Under the pieces are notes generated by a model. The model did not search any database and had not been told where the DNA came from. It saw nothing but the letters and a program-made list of their open reading frames with translations. Of a stretch of DNA of 64,000 nucleotides, positions 12 through 57,963 are shown in pieces. How positions within the stretch are numbered: the stretch's first letter is position 1; each line of letters starts with the position of its first letter. The position numbers and the translations under genes were made by a program. Source of the stretch: Escherichia phage T4; sequence record OZ209057.1, one strand, 5' to 3'.

Positions 12-2189
12 TTAGGCCGCAAGGGCCTTCATAGTTTTAGCGATTTGGGAAACTTCATCATCACTTAAAGAGTTGCGATAACCGATGAAGTCGGAAACAA
101 TACGGAATTTCTTGGTAAACTCAGCAACCATTTTATCACTGTTTTTTGAAGCATTATTTGATAATACATCAAAAAGATTAGTTACTGTCCAAATGTCATG
201 ACCGATGGTATCTTTTCCACCATTAAAATATACACCCTGTAATGAACTAACCATATTAGCGAGTCGTGTATATTCTTCAGAAACTTCATCTATACTGAAG
301 TACTTCATCATAAAATCTAACTCAGGATACTTGATAATTTTATCAATATATCGTTTAGCTGAACTTGAATAACCTACATACTTATCATAATCTACATCAT
401 CAAAAGCATCTACATATAAATCACGCAAAGCTTCAAAAATACATTGGCACTGACCGAGTTCTTTTACCTTTTTCTGTAAAAGCGGACGAATAACATAAAA
501 TTCATTAATGCCAATAAGATTAGCCATACGAATCAAAATATTCATAGATGGATGACAAAGAGATGTAGTACCATCCATAGAGAAAATATCAGAACGATGC
601 ATATACGCTACATAACCAGTAATTTCATCTGCTTCTGATGTGAGCGTAAATAATTCCTCTTTTTCCCAGCGCCCGTCTTTAATTTCAAACTTAAACGCTG
701 TAGCAGCTTTAGGACGAGGAGCTTTACTTTTAACTACCTTTGGAATATAACTTTTTACTAAAGCTTCAATTTCTGACAAATAATGAATGTTAACTTCATC
801 ACTTTCAAACATCGCCATAATATCAGGAAGCAAATCAATCTGCGATTCTACTTCTGGATTAATAAACAGAAGACGTTCGTTATGATGAATATTCAAAGTG
901 TTATTAAATTCACTATCATCTAACGCACGTGCTAATCCACGGACAATATTAACACGATTTTTAATATTATCAATAACGATATTAATTTTTGTTGTATTAA
1001 TACCAAACAGACGATAACTTGATGCAACGGCTGAAGTTTCATGACTTTGCTTAATGCGCTTCAGTCGAGGGTCAAGATTTACTTCATACACAACTCCCGC
1101 GTTGCATAACTTACTGTCAGGTTCAAACATGCTCTGCATCTTTTTATATGACAGATTTTTAGTCGTGAATTTGACTGAATTACTAATCATATAATCTCGA
1201 GCAGAATACCCCATCTTCATCAATTCACGATATGTGTGACGAGGAGATGTAGATTCTTTAAATCGTTTTACATCTTCATTAAATGCTTTCTCACTGAGTT
1301 CTTTAACTCGTTCAATAATATTTTTACGAGTGCGATCATCCAGTGAAAGAGCCTCGCGAGATGGAGCAATATCAAGTGAACCCATTGGAAACTTAATGTA
1401 ATTCACTTCATTGCGAATGCTTAGCCAGTTACGGTCTCTAATAACACCATCGATAGGATAAACAATACCACCGTAGATAGCATATAATCCACCACGATCA
1501 GGCCAGTATCTTTCTGGATTTACACCGTAATAGTCATCAAAATCCGGAAAATAATCAATTTCGCGGTCAAGACCATTAATGATAGCCAAATCTTTGAACG
1601 GTCGCATGATATAAGAAACTTCATAAGCAAAGTTTCTAAAGTCTTTTTCTTCAACTGGAACTACGATTTCAATACCAGTTTTATCATCTGGACCCATTTC
1701 TTTTACGAATGTAGGTTTAATCTGTGGACCATCACCATCCATGTAAGCTACATAACCACGAATTTCACCTTTATGATACGAAGTAATACTAAACGTATCA
1801 GTATAACTAAACGGAGATTTAGAACCTAAACCAAATCCGCCAATAAAGTCATTAGATTCAGCTTTAGATGAACTGAAGTATGAATTATACAACCCAGGAG
1901 AATTATCATCACCTTGAATATCAAAATCACTCATACCCGGACCAAAATCTCGACAAACAAATCGTGGGTCTAAACGTCCAGGAACTTGTATGATAAATTT
2001 TTCAGGATTTCCATTAAGTGCATGAGCATCAATCATGTTAGTAATCAATTCACGGACTACTGCGCGAATCTTGTTTGTATACAAATCAGATGACAGAATT
2101 TTAAATACTTTAGGAGATGCTGTGATGCTAAATGCTTTTGATTTAGAACCATTACCAAGAATTGTTTCTTTTTCAGTGGTGATAATCAT
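12..2189 (-). CDS. rIIA: rIIA protein (GHKL/Bergerat-fold ATPase-like N-terminus; rapid-lysis / Rex-exclusion phenotype)
   Basis: 725 aa ORF, the length I recall for T4 rIIA; N-terminal motifs [27 protein letters not shown] fit a GHKL ATPase fold. Confidence 0.93.
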
Positions 2190-2199
2190 AATTTCCTCA

Positions 2200-2403
2200 T
2201 TAATTCATATTACGCTTAATAACTTCAGCAACTTCTAGTAGTTCATCTTTAGTTGCGGTGTCGGATTGAATTTTATCTCTAATATCTTTAAAGCGGGTTT
2301 TAAATTCTTCGGCTTCTCCCATATCGAAAAAGCGTTGAATGATTCTATATTCTCGATGAACTGCTTTATCAAAAAGTTCTAAATTTACTTTATATGATTT
2401 CAT
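2200..2403 (-). CDS. small hypothetical protein downstream of rIIA (rIIA.1 position)
   Basis: 67 aa ORF with ATG start, between early promoter at 2429..2458 and rIIA. Confidence 0.6.
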
Positions 2404-2428
2404 TTCAATATCCTCATTTGCCCAATTA

Positions 2429-2458
2429 ATTATACCACATCCTTGTGGTAAAGTAAAC
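2429..2458 (-). promoter_or_regulatory. T4 early-type promoter (minus strand GTTTAC-N18-TATAAT)
   Basis: revcomp reads GTTTACTTTACCACAAGGATGTGGTATAAT; near-identical copy at 50093..50122. Confidence 0.7.
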
Positions 2459-2990
2459 TACTGGCTCATCCATTCTTTACGAAGGTCAGCATTATCTCCC
2501 ATGAGCATTTCAAAAAGCTCTTTCCAGTTCTCAGGAAGTTTAACAACATCATATACTGGGTTTTGAATCATCTCACGATATTCAGATTTTTCCAAAGAGC
2601 CAAGTCCCTTAATATAACGGATGCTATGTTTAGGTAGAGCATCTTTGGCACTCTCATATTCAGCGACTGTATAAAACCATTCTTGTTTTTTACCGACCTG
2701 AGCGATGATTACAGGAGTTTTGACAAAGCGAATTCGTCCTTGCTCAAACAATTCTGGCCAATTACTAAAAAATCCGAGCAGAGAAGGATAAATAGAACCT
2801 AATCCAATAATCTCTTAATTATGAGGTATTTCTATAGATAGCCCGAAGGCTATCCATCGTGATCTGCGTCTGTCATAATAGCGACATTCGCATAGTTCAT
2901 TGAAGAGGATTTAATAGAACGACGAACATTGTTCTGCAATTTATATTTTTTCATATCAACGCTAGAAGAATCAATTTTTACAAATTTCAT
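2458..2990 (-). CDS. 60: DNA topoisomerase II subunit gp60 (GyrB C-terminal-like), translated with a 50-nt ribosomal bypass: codons 1-46 = 2853..2990, codons 47-160 = 2461..2802, stop 2458..2460
   Basis: N-term MKFVKIDSSS...IMTDADHDG (TOPRIM DxD) ends at GGA followed by TAG; downstream frame LGSIYPSLLGFF...KEWMSQ resumes after a GGA; total 160 aa. Confidence 0.92.
2803..2852 (-). other. 50-nt coding gap of gene 60 (programmed translational bypass / ribosome hopping element)
   Basis: minus strand: GGA|TAG CCTTCGGGCTATC...TTATT GGA|TTA; take-off GGA 2853..2855, UAG stop, CUUCGG stem-loop, landing GGA 2803..2805, resume codon UUA 2800..2802. Confidence 0.88.
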
Positions 2991-3789
2991 TATACACCTC
3001 ATAGAACTTTTCATCAGGAATCCAACCGCGTTTAAATTCATTAAATGCTCGGCCGAATAATTTTGAATTCACAGTTATATTATTAACTGATTTCCATTTA
3101 GCAACTCCCGTTCGTTTATAATGATCGGGGTCATATTTCGTGACGTACCATTCATATAAATTTGGTATTAATTTTACAGCCTCTGGATTTGTCGCTGATT
3201 TATTATACCATGGTTTCGCTTTTTCAAGTTCAGCTGCTTTTGCAGTAGCAGCAACAGTATTTCCAATACCAACTAATTTTTCAGTTTTAATGCGTGGATC
3301 ATTAACATGAAGACGAAAAACTTCGCCCTTTTCATTTTTAAAGCATGTCATGCCTTTAATTCCAGGAAGCTTAACACCTTTATTAACACCGCACCATTCC
3401 TTTGGGTTAAATGATCCTTTAATTAATAAGGCGCATTTACCCGATTTAATACTTCTCATTAAAACTTTATCTTTCATAAAGTTTTTTGACCATTCAGATA
3501 CTGCTCTTTGATGGTAAATTCTAGCAATTTCATATAATTTACTAGAACGTAAATATTTTTCAGTGTTTAACATTCTATTCATCGCATATGCCATTTCACG
3601 ATTACGATGAATTTTATATAGTAGAAAATGTGCTAAAAAGTGTTCACGAAAAGTCAGTTTCACCAAATTTTCTTTATCATCAGAACCTCCCATTGATCTT
3701 GGAAGGATATGATGAATTTCACCCTTAAATTTAGAAACGCGGGTTTTACCCCGCACTATTAAGTCATTATAGATTTTTTCGTAATTCAC
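2971..3789 (-). CDS. mobA: HNH-family homing endonuclease (MobA-like) between genes 39 and 60
   Basis: 272 aa; EIHHILPRSMGGSDDKENLV HNH motif; paralogous to mobB/mobC/mobD in this window; first codon is GTG where paralogs have ATG; overlaps gene 39 end and gene 60 start. Confidence 0.8.
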   Translation of the reverse strand: MNYEKIYNDLIVRGKTRVSKFKGEIHHILPRSMGGSDDKENLVKLTFREHFLAHFLLYKIHRNREMAYAMNRMLNTEKYLRSSKLYEIARIYHQRAVSEWSKNFMKDKVLMRSIKSGKCALLIKGSFNPKEWCGVNKGVKLPGIKGMTCFKNEKGEVFRLHVNDPRIKTEKLVGIGNTVAATAKAAELEKAKPWYNKSATNPEAVKLIPNLYEWYVTKYDPDHYKRTGVAKWKSVNNITVNSKLFGRAFNEFKRGWIPDEKFYEVYNEICKN

Positions 3790-5317
3790 CTACTGTTATC
3801 CATTTACCATTAATCTGTACTTCATCATTTTCATTTACGATAATTGTATCGCCATTTAGCTCGAAAGTAAACCACTCGCCATCTTCTTTTTCTTCAAACG
3901 CTTTTTCACCGAGAACTAGACCAGTGATTGCGCAAATATCAAATAGTTCTTTGTTTTTAAGCATATCTGCATAAGACATACCCCAACTGTTGAGAACTTT
4001 ACCACGCAATGGATAACCACCGTGAAGTTCTTTATCACGAACATCAATAAGATATCCGATAGCCGAATCACCCTCAGTCAAGAAAAGAGTAGTATCAGCA
4101 TCTTTACCGCAAAGATTCGCTTTGATATGTTTATGAACCTTAGCTTTAGAAGCCTTTTTAGCTGCTTTAGTTTCTGCTGCTTTTTCTGCCGCCAATTTAC
4201 GAGCCAAAGCAGCTTCAATAATCGGCATTAGAATTGCTTCATTATTTAGAATAGCACGTGAAATCTTTTTAGCATCAAGTTGAATATGACTACGAATTTC
4301 GCCAAATGGAGAAGTCAAACGCTCTTTAGTTTGAGAATCAAATCGCATGTTTTTCATATCACGAACAAACATAACGATAGTCAAACATTCTTTGACACGT
4401 GCTTTAGTCACATCAATTTTGAACTTACGTTTGATTTGTGGAATAAGGTCTTCACAAATATCATCCATAGCGCAGTCAATGTGATGGCCACCATTCTTAG
4501 TATGAATGTTATTGACGTATGTTAATTGACGAAAACCATCCGGTGAACGACCAACCGCAATAGAACAATTTTCTTGCTCTTGAACAATAGCATGTTCATC
4601 ATACTGCCGTGCATATTTCTTAAAATTGCCCTGAACCTTTTTACCATTAAAGGTAAATTGAATATCAGGATAAACTACAGCAAGTGTCTGGAGACGATCC
4701 AGTGTAATGTCAAGATAAACTTGGGACAGCTCATTAGTTTCAAATGACATAAAATCAGGAATGAAAGTAACACGAGTTCCTTTCCATTTTCCAGGAATAT
4801 CTTCCCATGATTTATTTTCCATGCCATTTGAACAACGAACTACAATATTATTTTGACCGTCGCCAGTTTCACCGACAAACATCACAGAAAAAATGTTTGT
4901 CAAACTAGAACCAACACCGTTCATACCGCCGGTGACGCGTTCTTTATCATCACCAAAGTTACCACCTGCTTTTGGAATAGTCCATGCGGCAACAGGACCA
5001 GGAATTTCTTCACCGGTAGGTGTTTTAACCATCGCTTGTGGAATACCGCGACCGTTATCTTCAACTGTTACTTGATTGTTTTTAATAGTAACATTAATTT
5101 TATTCGCGAATTTAAACTTAGTACGAATACCTTCATCTACTGAGTTATCGATAATTTCATCAATAAGCTTAACAAGACCAGGTACATACTGAACACTTTC
5201 CCATTTACCAAACATAAAGCGCTCATGCGTTTCATTAGCAGAAGAGCCAATGTACATGCCACTACGCTTTTTGATATGTTCAATATCGCTCAGAATTTTA
5301 ATTTCATTCTTAATCAT
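3767..5317 (-). CDS. 39: DNA topoisomerase II large subunit gp39 (GyrB-like ATPase + start of TOPRIM)
   Basis: 516 aa from ATG at 5317; EDNGRGIP (ATP-lid G1), TEGDSA (TOPRIM) motifs; length matches T4 gp39 as recalled. Confidence 0.92.
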   Translation of the reverse strand: MIKNEIKILSDIEHIKKRSGMYIGSSANETHERFMFGKWESVQYVPGLVKLIDEIIDNSVDEGIRTKFKFANKINVTIKNNQVTVEDNGRGIPQAMVKTPTGEEIPGPVAAWTIPKAGGNFGDDKERVTGGMNGVGSSLTNIFSVMFVGETGDGQNNIVVRCSNGMENKSWEDIPGKWKGTRVTFIPDFMSFETNELSQVYLDITLDRLQTLAVVYPDIQFTFNGKKVQGNFKKYARQYDEHAIVQEQENCSIAVGRSPDGFRQLTYVNNIHTKNGGHHIDCAMDDICEDLIPQIKRKFKIDVTKARVKECLTIVMFVRDMKNMRFDSQTKERLTSPFGEIRSHIQLDAKKISRAILNNEAILMPIIEAALARKLAAEKAAETKAAKKASKAKVHKHIKANLCGKDADTTLFLTEGDSAIGYLIDVRDKELHGGYPLRGKVLNSWGMSYADMLKNKELFDICAITGLVLGEKAFEEKEDGEWFTFELNGDTIIVNENDEVQINGKWITVGELRKNL

Positions 5318-5369: not shown

Positions 5370-5388
5370 AAAGGCCCGAAGGCCTTTT
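5370..5388 (-). terminator. stem-loop with UUCG tetraloop in minus-strand transcript (RNA stability/terminator element)
   Basis: aaaggcc cgaa ggccttt palindrome between 39.1-like ORF and gene 39; weak U-run on minus strand. Confidence 0.5.
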
Positions 5389-5647
5389 ATTTAAAACGAA
5401 TAGTTGAATCCTTAAAGAACAGCCCAGAACATACTGTTCCTTCTACTTTCTGCCCGGTAGGTCCAATAGCACGAAATCCAGTATGCTGGAAATCATTTTC
5501 AGAGCAACCGAACCAATTATATCCAGTGATTTCAATATTAGTAAAACCACTTGAAGACAAAACTTTGGTTGCATTATCAGCATCAGTACATCCTATTAAA
5601 GACACTGCTAATACTAATGCTGCAATAGAACGATTAATATATTTCAT
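5387..5647 (-). CDS. predicted lipoprotein (39.1 position)
   Basis: 86 aa; signal peptide with lipobox LIGC (AALVLAVSLIGC). Confidence 0.6.
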   Translation of the reverse strand: MKYINRSIAALVLAVSLIGCTDADNATKVLSSSGFTNIEITGYNWFGCSENDFQHTGFRAIGPTGQKVEGTVCSGLFFKDSTIRFK

Positions 5648-5649
5648 AA

Positions 5650-5826
5650 TTACCCTTTAAGCAAGTCGTAAAATCCACCATTCACATGCTTAGGAGCGGA
5701 AACTAACCGAACAGCCAGCCGATGACAATCAGGACATACATCAGTATCTCTTTCAGAAATTTTCTTGATTTTTTCGTATTCTTTTGCACAGTCTTTGGAT
5801 TGACATTTATAATCATAAAGCGGCAT
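5650..5826 (-). CDS. 58-aa zinc-ribbon protein (CxxC...CPxC, FmdB-like)
   Basis: hand-translated ORF MPLYDYKCQSKDCAKEYEKIKKISERDTDVCPDCHRLAV...; below the 60-aa track cutoff. Confidence 0.5.
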   Translation of the reverse strand: MPLYDYKCQSKDCAKEYEKIKKISERDTDVCPDCHRLAVRLVSAPKHVNGGFYDLLKG

Positions 5827-15274: not shown

Positions 15275-15290
15275 CATTTAAATGAAAAAA

Positions 15291-15308
15291 GGACTCCCGA
15301 AGGAGTCC
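15291..15308 (-). terminator. rho-independent terminator after soc (UUCG hairpin + U6)
   Basis: ggactcc cgaa ggagtcc preceded on plus strand by aaaaaa. Confidence 0.75.
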
Positions 15309-15316
15309 TTGAGTTA

Positions 15317-22034: not shown

Positions 22035-22397
22035 TTAAAAGAATTTAAATTTTTTCTTTGACCTTTTATTAAATGCATCTTGCAGTTGCATTGTAATACA
22101 TTTTTCTACATGAGGAGCTAACTCAGCTTTTCTTTCTTGGTCAAGAACAGCAAAGTCCATTACAACCTTTCCATCAACCCAATCCAGTTTAGTTACATAC
22201 ACTATATGCGTAGAACCATCTTCTAGTTTAATGACAATCTCCTGGATAACATTTTCCATAGCAGATTTAATTATCTTAAGAGACTCATTAAAAAGACGTT
22301 CTTTTCTTTCTTCTTCCCCCTCCGAAGAGGGGGATTCATCGATAATTTCTAGATCTAAATCTAAATCATCTTTATTCATTAAATTCTTCCATATCAC
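22035..22397 (-). CDS. 40: gp40 head-assembly membrane-associated protein
   Basis: 120 aa ORF between uvsX and 41. Confidence 0.65.
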   Translation of the reverse strand: MIWKNLMNKDDLDLDLEIIDESPSSEGEEERKERLFNESLKIIKSAMENVIQEIVIKLEDGSTHIVYVTKLDWVDGKVVMDFAVLDQERKAELAPHVEKCITMQLQDAFNKRSKKKFKFF

Positions 22398-29041: not shown

Positions 29042-29101
29042 AGATATTCCTTAGTTTATAGCCCGAGTTATTAGGCTCTTGATATATTATACTCCAAATA
29101 A

Positions 29102-29115
29102 GGGGCCGAAGCCCC
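29102..29115 (-). terminator. UUCG-tetraloop hairpin between regA and gene 43
   Basis: ggggc cgaa gcccc; followed by U-rich tract on minus strand. Confidence 0.6.
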
Positions 29116-29119
29116 TTGC

Positions 29120-31014: not shown

Positions 31015-31048
31015 AATTTCCTCATTCAAGTTTTAGTGTAAATTATAA

Positions 31049-31062
31049 AGGGCCGAAGCCCT
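31049..31062 (-). terminator. UUCG hairpin in 45-44 intergenic region
   Basis: agggc cgaa gccct. Confidence 0.5.
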
Positions 31063-31065
31063 CTA

Positions 31066-31752
31066 TTAAAAATCGTGGGTAGAATCAGCTTCAAGAGCTA
31101 CCACATAATTCGCGTGTTCACCTTCAAATTTAGCAGCACCTTGTTTACCTTTTGCCCAAAGCAGAAGTTTATAATTTCCTGGTTGCATTTTCATATTTGC
31201 CATATTGATAATGAAATTAAATGTATTTTCACCATCATAATCACCAAGAGTCAAAGAATATTTAACACGGGTCAGAGCAGAATCTTCTACTTTATTAAAA
31301 CCGTTAATTACGATTTTACCTTCTTTTACCGTGATAGCAATTGTATCAATTTGCAGACCACGAGATACACGCAACAGCTGTTGAAGGTCTTCAGCTTTAA
31401 TTTCAGTAACAGCAGATGCTACCGGGAATGGAATTGGTTTATTAGGAGCAACTACTGTACTCGGATCGGCTGCTGGCCAAAAAATTGTTGAGCGGGCATC
31501 AGCAATTTTAATATTTCCATCTTCTGACTGGGAAATTTCTGCATCATCATTAACTAAAGACAGAATACCGAGAAAACCGTTCAAATCGTAAATTGCTACA
31601 TCAAAATCAATAACGTCAGAAATATTTGCTTCCGCATAAGTTGTACCATTAACTGCGCGAGTCATAATAAATTGACCGGATTTAAGCATAATACCAGAGT
31701 TAATAGTAGCGAAATTTTTAAGCAGAGCAGTAGTATCTTTAGACAGTTTCAT
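31066..31752 (-). CDS. 45: sliding clamp gp45
   Basis: 228 aa; length/synteny. Confidence 0.9.
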   Translation of the reverse strand: MKLSKDTTALLKNFATINSGIMLKSGQFIMTRAVNGTTYAEANISDVIDFDVAIYDLNGFLGILSLVNDDAEISQSEDGNIKIADARSTIFWPAADPSTVVAPNKPIPFPVASAVTEIKAEDLQQLLRVSRGLQIDTIAITVKEGKIVINGFNKVEDSALTRVKYSLTLGDYDGENTFNFIINMANMKMQPGNYKLLLWAKGKQGAAKFEGEHANYVVALEADSTHDF

Positions 31753-35596: not shown

Positions 35597-35756
35597 ATAT
35601 CAAGAACCGTCATTGAAATGCAAAATAAAATTATTGAAATAAATCCATCTGGAGTGCTAAAGAACCCAATCCAACATGCTCTAGTGAATAGATAAAATGC
35701 AAGAAAAAGTATCACATATCCAAGAAATATCATTATATCAAACTCCGTATAAAGCT

Positions 35757-35774
35757 AAAGGGCCGAAGCCCTTT
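35757..35774 (-). terminator. UUCG hairpin at alpha-gt 3' end
   Basis: aaagggc cgaa gcccttt overlapping stop codon. Confidence 0.5.
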
Positions 35775-36975
35775 ATTTTGTAATAATGTCAAACTGTTCT
35801 TTAAAGCAGAAGCTTGAATCTTGATGCTGATACAAAAATTCATATGCTTTTTCTCGCTCACGGTCATAAAGAGCTCGGTCAGATGACAGTTCTTTAATAC
35901 GTTCAAATGTTGATTCCATATCATTTTCATCAAACCAAATGATACCGCTATCATGCGAGGTCAAAGGAGTATTATCAACACGGAATTTTAAATTTTCGCC
36001 AGTAGATTTCCAAAATACCGGAATTGTTCCACATGCACCAAGCTCGAGATGAGTATATTCGAGTGAGCGTTGTAAGTATTTCTGGTTAAGTTTACTCAAC
36101 TGATATCCAAAGCCAGATTTACTCATTCGTTCAAGCATTTCACTATTAATATAACAATCTAGGATTTGTGCCGGTTGATTCGGCGCGAGATTCATTTTAT
36201 CAATCTCACGATTACCGTAATATTCATACGGAATACCTTTTTCCTTAATTGCAATAAAAGCAGGGGAACGTTCCAGACCTTCCATTACAGTGGATTTACC
36301 AGCAGGTTTTAAGAATTTTTCATGAAAATCAAACATCTGGTAAAAACCTTTCCATGTAGTCGTACGACCAATCCAACGGTTGATATTCATGTTAATTTCA
36401 GAAACATCTTTCCAATAAGTTGACCGAACCTTCACAATATCCATAGGAGGCTGAAAATTATATACTGTCGGTGCTTCTTCAATATCATCAAACAGAGAAA
36501 CAGTTTCTGGATACCATTCTTTCATCAGAACTTTATTAAAATCACCATTATCAGAATGGCTAAAAATAACATCAGCTCGACGAACAGTTTCTTCTAATCC
36601 CAAATTTCGACGCAAAGAAAGAACAGAATGATCATGCTGATAAACTACAACACGAATAGAAGGTTTAATATTATCTAAAAGTTTTTTATAGTTATTAATC
36701 GTAGCTTCTTGAACGGAAGTAGCAGGAACAGAATTAATAATTAGAATATCACAATCATTTACTAGCTTAAGTGCTTTATCGTATTCTTTAGCTAAAATAA
36801 CTGGAATTGAAAATGATTTGTGGTCATGAGAACTTGTACGAGTAAATGATTTATCTTTAGCATAAACCAAAGTTACTTCATGACCATTTTTAATAAACCA
36901 ATCACGTTGCTCGAGTGAGAATTTTGTTACACCACAACCTTCAAGACCTCGAGCCATAAAAATGCAAATACGCAT
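35773..36975 (-). CDS. agt: alpha-glucosyltransferase (HMC-DNA alpha-glucosylation)
   Basis: 400 aa intact ORF; length matches T4 alpha-gt. Confidence 0.88.
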   Translation of the reverse strand: MRICIFMARGLEGCGVTKFSLEQRDWFIKNGHEVTLVYAKDKSFTRTSSHDHKSFSIPVILAKEYDKALKLVNDCDILIINSVPATSVQEATINNYKKLLDNIKPSIRVVVYQHDHSVLSLRRNLGLEETVRRADVIFSHSDNGDFNKVLMKEWYPETVSLFDDIEEAPTVYNFQPPMDIVKVRSTYWKDVSEINMNINRWIGRTTTWKGFYQMFDFHEKFLKPAGKSTVMEGLERSPAFIAIKEKGIPYEYYGNREIDKMNLAPNQPAQILDCYINSEMLERMSKSGFGYQLSKLNQKYLQRSLEYTHLELGACGTIPVFWKSTGENLKFRVDNTPLTSHDSGIIWFDENDMESTFERIKELSSDRALYDREREKAYEFLYQHQDSSFCFKEQFDIITK

Positions 36976-37828: not shown

Positions 37829-37879
37829 TTTAGTTTATTTTACCAAAAAATTTATAAAGCAATATAAGAGCCGAAGCTC

Positions 37880-38071
37880 CTATCCACATAATACGCCATA
37901 CAGAGGCTCGTTAGAACTTTTAAATTTTATGCGCTTATATGTTATAGTTCCTTCTGCTTTAGCTTTATCATGAGCCTCTTTAAAGCGTCTCATCATTTCC
38001 TCTCTAGAGGAACGAATTTTATTATAATCTATTTCAGAAGTCGGATGTTCATCTTTCACAGTTGCCACCAT
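37880..38071 (-). CDS. hypothetical small protein
   Basis: 63 aa ORF. Confidence 0.45.
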   Translation of the reverse strand: MVATVKDEHPTSEIDYNKIRSSREEMMRRFKEAHDKAKAEGTITYKRIKFKSSNEPLYGVLCG

Positions 38072-39971: not shown

Positions 39972-39988
39972 AAGGGCCGAAGCCCTTA
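39972..39988 (-). terminator. UUCG hairpin + U-run
   Basis: aagggc cgaa gccctt; minus-strand transcript followed by UUUUUGG. Confidence 0.55.
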
Positions 39989-43957: not shown

Positions 43958-44990
43958 CTTCATCAATGTGTTCAGTAGAGTTCGCTACTTCTCTACCCGT
44001 TTATATGAAACAATGTAATTTGGATAATTGTCATCTAAACACAAATCTTTAATACGACTTGGGTGGAGTTTTAAATCTTTAGCAGCATCCACAAATGATT
44101 TATAGATATTGTCATTTATTTTAACATATTCTGGGACGGGATGAATTGTTATTTTTATATCTATAACATTTGGATGATTACTAACCTGTTCTTCAGAGCA
44201 TTTAAGAAATTTTGCAGCTGATTTAAAACTTCTAAATTTATTTCCGGATTTTAAAGCTATAGAAACAGTCTTTTTAGCCGTTCTACTACCAATATTATTT
44301 TTAACATGAGCTTCACTTCTACTATTATTTTTATAATGCTCAATCAATTTCTCTCGTATCTTATCTTTATGTTTTAAAGATAAGATTTTACCTTTATGGG
44401 CATTACTAAGTTTTTGCTTATGTTCTTCTGAATCCGGATATTTGTTAAATTTATATCCACCTATAGATTTATTAAGAATAAATTCGTTATTAAAATATTT
44501 CCTAATAAGCATTTCTTCATGTTTAAGGGCCGATTCATAAGAATCAAAAACTTGAAGAATTATCCACTTAGCTTTATAATCTTTAAGCTTTTCTTTAACA
44601 AGCTTAGATGACGAATTGTATTCTTTCCAATTTGTATCTTTACCATATATAGTTTTGAATTTTTTAAAACCTATATAAAAAGACTTATCAGGAAATCTTA
44701 CCATATAGGTAAATGCTACAGAATTGGCAATTTTTAAGCTTTTTCTTAATTTCCATTTCATCGTTTCACCTCGTATTCATATTTATACGAGGATAAACAG
44801 CTGCATGTCACCATGCAGTTCAGACTATATCTTCAACTCTTAGAGTTGTCTGCCGTTTCGGGTCGCTTGACCCTACTCCCTTACATTCATCAGGGATAGT
44901 CGTTGGGCATTTACAGCTACTGCTGATTTAGCAACGGATTGTCTCAGTGAGAGTTTCCCGTTTTAGGCAGATTTTACATGAGCTTGACTT
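43958..44990 (-). mobile_element. group I intron in nrdD (1033 nt) carrying I-TevII
   Basis: exon 1 frame ends at U (44991), proposed intron ends with G (43958); 5' part has no long ORF, consistent with structured RNA; boundaries inferred, not proven. Confidence 0.7.
43985..44761 (-). CDS. I-TevII: intron-encoded homing endonuclease I-TevII (GIY-YIG)
   Basis: 258 aa ORF inside the intron; FTYMVRFPDKSFYIGF GIY-YIG-like motif. Confidence 0.85.
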   Translation of the reverse strand: MKWKLRKSLKIANSVAFTYMVRFPDKSFYIGFKKFKTIYGKDTNWKEYNSSSKLVKEKLKDYKAKWIILQVFDSYESALKHEEMLIRKYFNNEFILNKSIGGYKFNKYPDSEEHKQKLSNAHKGKILSLKHKDKIREKLIEHYKNNSRSEAHVKNNIGSRTAKKTVSIALKSGNKFRSFKSAAKFLKCSEEQVSNHPNVIDIKITIHPVPEYVKINDNIYKSFVDAAKDLKLHPSRIKDLCLDDNYPNYIVSYKRVEK

Positions 44991-45534
44991 ACGTTAACTC
45001 ATAAGCTTGGAATGCATCGTATACGTCTTTTTCTGTTTTAGATTGAGCATAATTCAACGCATCAGCGATTTGCCATTTTTCTGCATCCTCAATATGTTTT
45101 GCATAGGTGCGTTTAACATAAGGAGAAAGTACTTTATCTACATTCGCAAAAGTCGTTCCGCCGTATTGGTGAGAAGCAACTTGCGCAGTAATTTGTGCCA
45201 TAATTGCAGTAGCAACTCCAATTGATTTAGGAGTTTCAATCTGCGCATTACCAAGCTTAAATCCGTTTTCAAGCATTCCTTTTAAATCTACTAAACAGCA
45301 ATTAGTAAATGGAAGAGCAGGGGAATAATCAATATCATGCACGTGAATAATTCCGCTTTCATGCGCTTTCATAATAAAAGACGGGACCATATTTTTGGCA
45401 ATGTGTTTAGACACAATACCAGCCATAAGGTCCCGTTGAGTTGGAAAAACACGAGAATCTTTATTAGCATTCTCGTTTAAAAGGTCTTTATTAGTTTTAT
45501 GAATTAATCCTTCAATTTCTTTTTCAATTGTCAT
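44991..45534 (-). CDS. nrdD: anaerobic ribonucleotide reductase NrdD, exon 1
   Basis: 181 codons from ATG at 45534; exon 1 + exon 2 total 605 aa as recalled for T4 NrdD. Confidence 0.8.
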
Positions 45535-54553: not shown

Positions 54554-54563
54554 AAATAAAAAA

Positions 54564-54581
54564 GGGAGCCCGAAGGCTCCC
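54564..54581 (-). terminator. rho-independent terminator (UUCG hairpin + U6)
   Basis: gggagcc cgaa ggctccc preceded on plus strand by aaaaaa. Confidence 0.75.
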
Positions 54582-54583
54582 TA

Positions 54584-57930: not shown

Positions 57931-57946
57931 CGGTAAAATGAAAAAA

Positions 57947-57963
57947 GTCTCCCGAAGGAGACT
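57947..57963 (-). terminator. rho-independent terminator (UUCG hairpin + U-run)
   Basis: agtctcc cgaa ggagact preceded on plus strand by aaaaaa. Confidence 0.7.

Follow-up and report, generated by a model that had tools for sequence, protein, structure and literature searches.

The gene 60 locus of bacteriophage T4

On the minus strand of the 64,000-nucleotide stretch of DNA that we analysed (the window), gene 39 is followed by mobA and by a gene 60 whose coding sequence is interrupted by 50 nt. The genes, and the mobile cassette that runs across them, are arranged as follows:

3767..5317, minus strand: gene 39, N-terminal part of a split GyrB-like subunit (Pfam HATPase_c and DNA_gyraseB)
about 2794..3899, minus strand: MobA mobile cassette, ~1.1 kb, its boundaries set where identity to AR1 gene 39 switches from ~99% to 44-73%
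3770..3898, minus strand: C-terminal extension of gp39, first part of the MobA cassette
2971..3789, minus strand: mobA, HNH-family homing (nicking) endonuclease, an intact 272-codon ORF with a GTG start
2853..2990, minus strand: gene 60 ORF1, codons 1-46, starting at the ATG at 2990 and ending with the take-off codon; an annotated CDS piece
2803..2852, minus strand: 50-nt coding gap, UAG through landing GGA; a GenBank misc_feature, with stops in three frames, absent from AR1 gene 39
2458..2802, minus strand: gene 60 ORF2, codons 47-160 and stop, resuming at UUA (Leu47)

Since a 701-nt query (2400..3100) is 100% identical, at the same coordinates, to the T4 records AF158101.6, NC_000866.4, HM137666, KJ477684 and others, the window is phage T4 genome in reference numbering. 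In T4 records gene 60 is a CDS joined from two pieces (2458..2990), and 2803..2852 carries a misc_feature, 'non-coding translational bypass region in mRNA'. The feature, well studied and no discovery, is the textbook example, and the original one, of programmed translational bypassing; it was discovered in the late 1980s (Manning & Atkins 2022, their refs 16-17). The window has the same sequence, coordinates and cis elements as the known T4 gene 60 bypass, without any difference in the bypass region, which is already known in every respect and adds no new biology. Automated annotation splits gene 60 into two ORFs in many phage records.

Relative to the T4 reference AF158101.6, the window is a re-sequenced version of T4 in which the adjacent mobA is intact, as it is also annotated in HM137666. 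The gene shares 23 nt with gene 39 and 20 nt with gene 60; Edgell et al. 2010 give both its GUG start and the 23-bp overlap. The match of MobA to Pfam HNH is weak, falling just under the cut-off (20.1 vs 21.4 bits). In AF158101.6, where the segment is labelled 'mobA pseudogene + 60.1', mobA differs from that of the window by 11 single-base indels, all of them extra bases in AF158101.6 and 8 of the 11 a C; these look like old sequencing error.

Take-off site, gap and landing site

The elements at and around the gap, in the direction of translation, are:

2901..2951, minus strand: nascent-peptide bypass signal KKYKLQNNVRRSIKSSS, codons 14-30, as quoted in Wills et al. 2024
2865..2892, minus strand: predicted 5' stem-loop, from the MFE and centroid folds of 2740..2935
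2853..2855, minus strand: take-off codon GGA (Gly46, codon 46), read from the sequence
2834..2857, minus strand: take-off stem-loop, 10 bp with a UUCG tetraloop (loop 2844..2847; arms 2857..2848 and 2843..2834)
2850..2852, minus strand: UAG stop directly after the take-off GGA, in the A site at take-off
2842..2844, minus strand: unscanned GGG, gap nt 9-11 (the published numbering fits the sequence)
2832..2834, minus strand: second in-frame UAG, within the gap
2806..2833, minus strand: A+U-rich 3' part of the gap, 79% A+U as computed
2815..2821, minus strand: UAAuUAA, within the gap
2812..2814, minus strand: mini Shine-Dalgarno GAG, at gap nt 39-41 and, as published, 6 nt 5' of the landing codon
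2803..2805, minus strand: landing codon GGA, gap nt 48-50, read from the sequence
2797..2799, minus strand: GGU 54-56, matching the published numbering
2773..2775, minus strand: GGA 78-80, matching the published numbering
2741..2780, minus strand: candidate 3' stem-loop where ORF2 begins ('forward slippage barrier'), predicted in MFE and centroid folds

The codons for take-off and landing match, are read by the same tRNA, and flank a non-coding gap; 47 nt separate the two GGA codons, giving a 50-nt gap if UAG through landing GGA is counted, and the gap numbering of the literature fits the window sequence at every base. An earlier note on this DNA had named the take-off GGA at 2853..2855, the UAG behind it, a UUCG hairpin, the landing GGA at 2803..2805 and resumption at UUA; each of these assignments, on the minus strand, proved correct. 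The hairpin that it described, GAUAGCC-UUCG-GGCUAUC, is confirmed, and its stem extends to 10 bp. Take-off GGA and UAG both sit within the 5' arm of this stem-loop, which is closed by a stable tetraloop and whose apical part is the 'A-site SL'.

The 66-nt stretch containing the hairpin (2797..2862) has a folding energy of -17.5 kcal/mol (z = -2.81), matched by 2 of 200 shuffles, and the take-off stem-loop has the longest stem of all UUCG-loop hairpins in the window. CUUCGG hexamers are enriched in the window (27 vs 12.2 expected, 12 of them with stems of at least 6 bp): such hairpins are common in the T4 genome, so the hairpin alone is not diagnostic, and the diagnostic value lies in the combination of features. 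Among the other members of this combination, the GAG lies 6 nt 5' of the landing codon, within the 5-7 nt expected of a mini Shine-Dalgarno, in an A+U-rich context.

ORF1 is preceded by GAGGUG ahead of its ATG at 2990 and translates over 46 codons as MKFVKIDSSSVDMKKYKLQNNVRRSIKSSSMNYANVAIMTDADHDG. It consists of an element-encoded N-terminal extension and the 'HomR' stretch, which restores the Toprim motif IMTDADHDG. The nine residues that contact the exit tunnel in the cryo-EM structure of Agirrezabala 2017 (PMC5462505), K5, I6, Y16, R24, S28, Y33, M39, T40 and H44, are all found at their named ORF1 positions, and the nascent-peptide signal in ORF1 includes Y16, Q19, V22, R24 and T40. The predicted 5' stem-loop ends exactly 9 nt before the take-off codon, in agreement with Wills et al. 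2024.

From the UUA at 2802, ORF2 reads LGSIYPSLLGFF / LGSIYPSLLGFFSNWPELF... and continues for 114 codons to the stop at 2458..2460, encoding the C-terminal part of the Toprim region of a GyrB-like topoisomerase II subunit. The literature places a 3' stem-loop at the beginning of ORF2 (Manning & Atkins 2022; PMC11194080); the 77-nt stretch holding our candidate for it folds no better than shuffles (z = -0.67). Taken together, the functional bypass element spans roughly 2741..2990. The earlier note had placed all canonical cis elements within 2800..2860: they are indeed all present within 2741..2990, but the nascent-peptide signal and the 5' stem-loop lie outside that narrower span.

Closed frames and a colinear joined protein

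All three frames are closed in the gap: the zero frame by the UAG at 2850..2852 and again at 2832..2834, the others by UAA at 2819..2821 and at 2815..2817. From the last of these stops (2815..2817) the ORF2 frame contains no ATG, GTG or TTG until the TTG at 2751, codon 64. With the frames closed and no early start codon, a complete protein would be made neither by read-through, nor by a simple frameshift, nor by re-initiation.

It is accordingly extremely improbable that the ORFs are joined by splicing of a mini-intron, by ordinary +1/-1 frameshifting or by UAG read-through. T4 does have self-splicing group I introns, one of them in the window at 44801..45032 (RF00028, 105 bits), but a search of 2300..3200 against Rfam matched no family, intron or other, even at E <= 1 (there is no curated model for the bypass element), and 50 nt is far under group I intron size. 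Read-through is formally possible in the copies of Proteus phages, whose gap of 51 nt is in frame and contains a single UAG; in T4 a second zero-frame UAG (2832..2834) follows the first, ORF2 lies in a different frame and the other frames hit UAA. With stops in every frame, the ORFs are joined neither by reading through the UAG nor by one frameshift close to the take-off site, and according to the literature (including PMC5462505) the mRNA contains the 50 nt and read-through is negligible.

Phage AR1 carries an unsplit 605-aa gene 39 product, to which the hop-joined T4 protein is identical across the junction (...AIMTDADHDG/LGSIYPSLLGFF..., the slash marking the junction), and in the nucleotide alignment of T4 with AR1 gene 39 the latter has a gap of exactly 50 nt. 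When the joined gp60 was used as a tblastn query, 1,937 phage records matched, 1,612 of which cover at least 80% of the joined protein; among the 40 matches listed, the 39 below the top T4-like match align across the junction uninterrupted, most of them over residues ~27-160. Joined gp60 matches Pfam TOPRIM_C (6.4e-08) and gave no Pfam match to the Toprim model itself, because the DxDxDG stretch is too near the N-terminus; we therefore judged the junction by colinearity with unsplit homologues in place of the Toprim model.

Two structures bear on the products. The nascent peptide in the ribosome take-off complex (PDB 5np6_C, 46 aa) is identical to ORF1, and PDB 8yo3 is active T4 topoisomerase II with the 160-aa joined gp60, expressed there from a codon-optimised fusion, which demonstrates that the joined sequence is functional and not that it arises by bypassing.

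Termination at the UAG followed by re-initiation, with release of the 46-aa peptide and synthesis of a separate downstream protein as two unrelated products, would fit the annotation of two separate CDSs around the gap in Proteus phages Pm5461 and SJ_PmiM and of 'DNA topoisomerase (x2)' in several T4-like records, and it could draw on the observation that roughly half of the ribosomes drop off, their product being the same as the 46-aa peptide made by termination (Wills 2024; PMC11194080). We nevertheless consider it highly unlikely. A product initiated at codon 64, the first start codon available, would miss LGSIYPSLLGFFSNWPE, which is 100% conserved with the unsplit homologues, and would be cut off from the DxDxD acidic motif on ORF1; furthermore, mass spectrometry detects the joined product and shows GGA 48-50 as the sole landing site (Manning & Atkins 2022; Wills 2024).

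That the 50 nt and the stop are a sequencing or assembly artefact, or a disabling insertion in a decaying pseudogene, is scarcely conceivable. The many single-base errors in the adjoining mobA of AF158101.6, relative to the window, might invite this reading, but in the gap region the window and AF158101.6 do not differ, and the 81 nt around the gap are identical in 28 phage records and 97.5-98.8% identical in 13 others. As for decay, ORF2 stays open and is 98.9% identical to the unsplit gene, and the T4 topoisomerase containing gp60 is enzymatically active. Sequencing error, re-initiation, read-through, frameshifting and splicing were thus all rejected on frame, identity, Rfam and homologue evidence.

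The interruption is, close to certainly, the programmed translational bypass of 50 nt in gene 60 of bacteriophage T4. The earlier note's identification of it as such is borne out by the 100% identity to T4, the annotated bypass and the 50-nt difference from AR1, and the window contains no sequence evidence against bypassing. In our analysis the assignment rests on the anatomy of the site, T4 identity, the closed frames, colinearity with unsplit homologues and the cassette boundaries; the hop itself, its ribosomal mechanism and its efficiency come from literature on the exact same sequence, and the immunity function of the MobA cassette from a paper cited second-hand.

The gap as part of a MobA cassette

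The bypass site falls at the invariant Asp/Gly of the Toprim DxDxDG motif, in a split topoisomerase II gene and with the MobA HNH gene adjoining. T4 gp39 consists of ATPase and transducer domains and, at its C-terminus, an extension of 43 aa encoded by the element; up to residue 473 it is colinear with AR1 gp39, and the unrelated tail follows. On the gene 60 side, nucleotide identity between T4 and AR1 is 73% over codons 32-46, 44% over the 9 nt after landing, where every change is synonymous, and 98.9% from 2793 downstream. These identity switches against the unsplit AR1 gene 39 delimit an insert of ~1.1 kb (about 2794..3899), in agreement with the 1097-1106 nt reported for the MobA element (Manning & Atkins 2022). 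It opens with the gp39 C-terminal extension and continues with mobA, the N-terminal extension of gene 60 (with HomR), the 50-nt gap and, after landing, 9 recoded nt. The gap thus belongs to a selfish MobA cassette of ~1.1 kb that divided the ancestral gene for the topoisomerase large subunit, giving genes 39 and 60.

In the account of Bonocora et al. 2011, as relayed in Manning & Atkins 2022, MobA makes a nick in the unsplit gene and drives the homing of the entire cassette, and it is the 50-nt insert, not the silent HomR changes, that shields the carrier from self-nicking. The hop allows this insert to sit inside the invariant Toprim motif with the protein left unaltered.

Conservation of the bypass site and the Proteus phage copies

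While 498 phage records share part of the stretch with the window, only 41 of them cover at least 80% of the 701-nt query (the end of mobA, the gap and gene 60). With the 81 nt around the gap as query, a sensitive search found 46 records, comprising 41 at 97.5-100% identity, in which the 28 identical ones include several separately deposited T4 genomes, and five from Proteus phages (Bragavirus) at ~80%. The 50-nt gap is beyond chance, given the exactly 50-nt difference from the uninterrupted AR1 gene 39 and this conservation across phage records. Scanning viral contigs for the take-off context ATGACNGAYGCNGAYNNNGAYGGNTAG returned a single locus and no new variants.

The Proteus phage cassettes (Pm5461, PM2 and SJ_PmiM) resemble that of T4 in insertion point and in the order of gene 39, mobA and gene 60; they have UAG after the take-off codon, a CC-UUCG-GG hairpin and the GAG, which, like its 6-nt spacing to the landing codon, is invariant. 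Their ORF1 peptide retains KYK.Q..V.R and MTDAD.DG, keeping Y16, Q19, V22 and T40 as in T4. They differ from T4 in ~20% of nucleotides, in the single stop and in the take-off codon, a GGG wobble-matched to a landing GGA. The gap in these copies measures 51 nt, in frame, and contains only one UAG.

Pairing in the take-off stem is kept in 40 of 40 cells across T4 and the three Proteus phage copies: the third base of the take-off codon changes from A to G with its partner going from U to C, and two neighbouring pairs swap G-C and G-U. The shuffle control for covariation was not beaten (116 of 500 shuffles), because these four sequences represent only two lineages. The covariation in the Proteus stem is therefore supportive of the predicted hairpin, short of decisive or independent statistical proof; both the GGG/GGA pairing and the compensated stem had already been reported by Manning & Atkins 2022 (bioRxiv 10.1101/2022.08.31.505936).

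Mechanism and efficiency of the hop

For this exact sequence, published work has established the following course of events. After 46 codons have been translated, the nascent chain, through KKYKLQNNVRRSIKSSS and its other contacts, grips the exit tunnel and slows elongation, anchoring peptidyl-tRNA-Gly and locking, or inactivating, the peptidyl-transferase centre. When the P site holds GGA and the A site UAG, the upper part of the UUCG hairpin forms in the A site, where it bars release factor 1 and near-cognate tRNAs, and hence read-through (PMC5462505). EF-G with GTP then pseudo-translocates the A-site hairpin and begins the sliding, at a cost of ~1.8 GTP per nucleotide, with peptidyl-tRNA-Gly leaving GGA and remaining on the ribosome. 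Refolding of the 5' stem-loop and of the take-off stem-loop behind the ribosome favours directional forward sliding, during which the hidden GGG is not scanned. At the far end, pairing of the GAG mini-SD with 16S rRNA sets the tRNA on the GGA 47 nt downstream, with decoding restarting at UUA; the 3' stem-loop and the mini-SD both favour landing. About half of the ribosomes complete the hop and yield the 160-aa gp60.

The experiments behind this scheme were done on the exact sequence found in the window. Mass spectrometry and in vitro translation show one polypeptide from the two ORFs (Manning & Atkins 2022; Wills 2024; PMC11194080), the take-off complex has been solved by cryo-EM (PDB 5np6; Agirrezabala 2017, PMC5462505), and published work also includes in vitro reconstitution and mutants in the nascent-peptide signal, the mini-SD and the landing codon. 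Sliding kinetics are the subject of a 2024 NAR paper (PMC11194080): take-off and landing are each near 100% efficient, and a drop-off of ~1% per nucleotide results in ~50% overall (Wills 2024). The checks that the earlier note had proposed, mass spectrometry of the junction peptide and mutation of the landing codon, are already in the literature. Since the 46-aa product coexists with full-length gp60, finding the 46-aa peptide would be no refutation of bypassing.

Bypassing is reversibly blocked at low temperature in vitro (PMC5462505), and Manning & Atkins 2022 raise the possibility that limited or regulated bypassing was selected. That the ~50% efficiency and strong temperature dependence constitute a regulatory device, one that tunes gp60 against gp39/gp52 or gives the 46-aa peptide a role of its own, strikes us as unlikely; if true, the inefficiency would be more than a tolerated cost of the selfish MobA immunity insert. 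The window itself is neutral on this point, holding nothing for it or against it.

The gene 60 hop is the classic proof that a ribosome can keep its peptidyl-tRNA while sliding across 50 nt of mRNA and then take up translation in another frame. Work on tunnel-peptide signalling, on mRNA structures in the A site and on sliding driven by EF-G has made use of it. The hop also illustrates that a non-collinear gene is recognisable from raw sequence, as it was to the first-stage reader.

Related bypass and mobile elements

The earlier note counted the site among very few known cases, a view now out of date given the dozens of homologues and the 81 byps of yeast mitochondria in the literature. MobA-element bypass cassettes occur in T4-like (Straboviridae) phages as clades 1-6 and in metagenomes (Manning & Atkins 2022), the same study (bioRxiv 10.1101/2022.08.31.505936) giving 28 genomic cassettes plus the metagenomic ones. 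In other clades Asp codons, GNRA loops, a 'hungry' AGG replacing the stop, or a 20-nt gap are found (Manning & Atkins 2022).

The byps of Magnusiomyces capitatus mitochondria, inserts of 27-55 nt numbering 81 in 12 genes (as cited in Manning & Atkins 2022), share with T4 an efficient programmed bypass, matched codons, a slow A-site codon and mobile-element behaviour. Unlike T4, they appear to spread like GC-cluster elements; they lack a homing endonuclease, are not known to have a nascent-peptide signal, and use a sense codon lacking a tRNA rather than a stop, relying on some feature of mitochondrial translation in that yeast.

Within T4 itself, the intron- or intein-borne homing endonucleases I-TevI/II/III resemble MobA in being selfish endonucleases whose genes sit in an essential gene together with a device that restores the host protein and disrupts the endonuclease's target. 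The two differ in how restoration is achieved: by RNA or protein splicing for I-TevI/II/III, and by a gene split combined with a 50-nt ribosomal hop for the MobA cassette.

Proteus phage bypass cassettes with an in-frame gap

Diverged bypass cassettes are found in three Proteus phages, at the same coordinates in each:

L003:2369-2560, Pm5461, diverged bypass cassette
L004:2369-2560, PM2, diverged bypass cassette
L005:2369-2560, SJ_PmiM, diverged bypass cassette

In these cassettes GGG serves as the take-off and GGA as the landing codon, and the gap is 51 nt long and in frame, as compared to the 50 nt of T4 gene 60. Since the only zero-frame stop within this in-frame gap is a UAG, its read-through would insert 17 additional residues inside the Toprim motif rather than end the protein. 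The GenBank records of all three phages give each half its own CDS, with no annotation of the bypass. The GGG/GGA pairing has already been published (Manning & Atkins 2022, bioRxiv 10.1101/2022.08.31.505936), and we found no mention of the in-frame 51-nt gap length in the passages of that preprint consulted.

CUUCGG hairpins on the strand of gene 60

Hairpins of the CUUCGG type, with 6-9 bp stems, occur repeatedly on the strand that encodes gene 60:

5370..5387 (-), hairpin 1
15289..15310 (-), hairpin 2
22315..22334 (-), hairpin 3
29100..29117 (-), hairpin 4
31045..31066 (-), hairpin 5
35756..35775 (-), hairpin 6
37864..37883 (-), hairpin 7
39972..39987 (-), hairpin 8
54563..54582 (-), hairpin 9
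57946..57963 (-), hairpin 10

The CTTCGG hexamer is found 27 times in the window (12.2 +/- 3.4 expected). The recurring hairpins probably correspond to stable tetraloop hairpins already described in T4 transcripts; Manning & Atkins 2022 mention the motif as recurrent in T4. Among the UUCG-loop hairpins returned by our scan of the window, the longest stem is that of the gene 60 take-off hairpin.

mobA and other differences from the old T4 reference

The mobA gene of the window is a single intact ORF of 272 codons with a GTG start, and the annotation of T4T (HM137666) likewise has it intact. In the old T4 reference annotation (AF158101.6 / NC_000866.4) it is broken into a 'mobA pseudogene' and '60.1'. 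The segments compared were:

2971..3789 (-), window, mobA
2971..3767, AF158101.6, mobA region

Between window positions 3449 and 3656 we detected 11 single-base indels, every one an extra base in AF158101.6 and eight of them C. Judging by this sequence comparison, the split looks like a legacy sequencing error and not a true pseudogene. T4 mobA is still termed defective or a pseudogene in reviews and in Manning & Atkins 2022.

The window also departs from AF158101.6 by clustered indels and substitutions at 643..660 (rIIA), 4254..4340 (gene 39) and, in the 39.1/39.2 region, 5575..5753 (L001, i.e. AF158101.6, 5587..5766), and ORF calls are altered as a result:

5387..5647, 39.1, 86 aa, window and T4T
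5398..5595, 39.1, AF158101.6

Start of gene 60 ORF1 and a group I intron

The ORF1 frame can be extended 5' from its annotated start codon, the ATG at 2990, without a break as far as another ATG, which lies within mobA at 3041 (span 2850..3041 (-)), and a mechanical ORF call therefore yields 63 aa, not 46. GAGGUG precedes the annotated start, not the ATG at 3041. To our knowledge, all experimental work on gene 60 uses the annotated start.

Elsewhere in the window, Rfam RF00028 (group I catalytic intron) has a full-length match (105.3 bits, E = 2.8e-26):

44801..45032 (-), group I intron, presumably that of nrdD (sunY) from the T4 map
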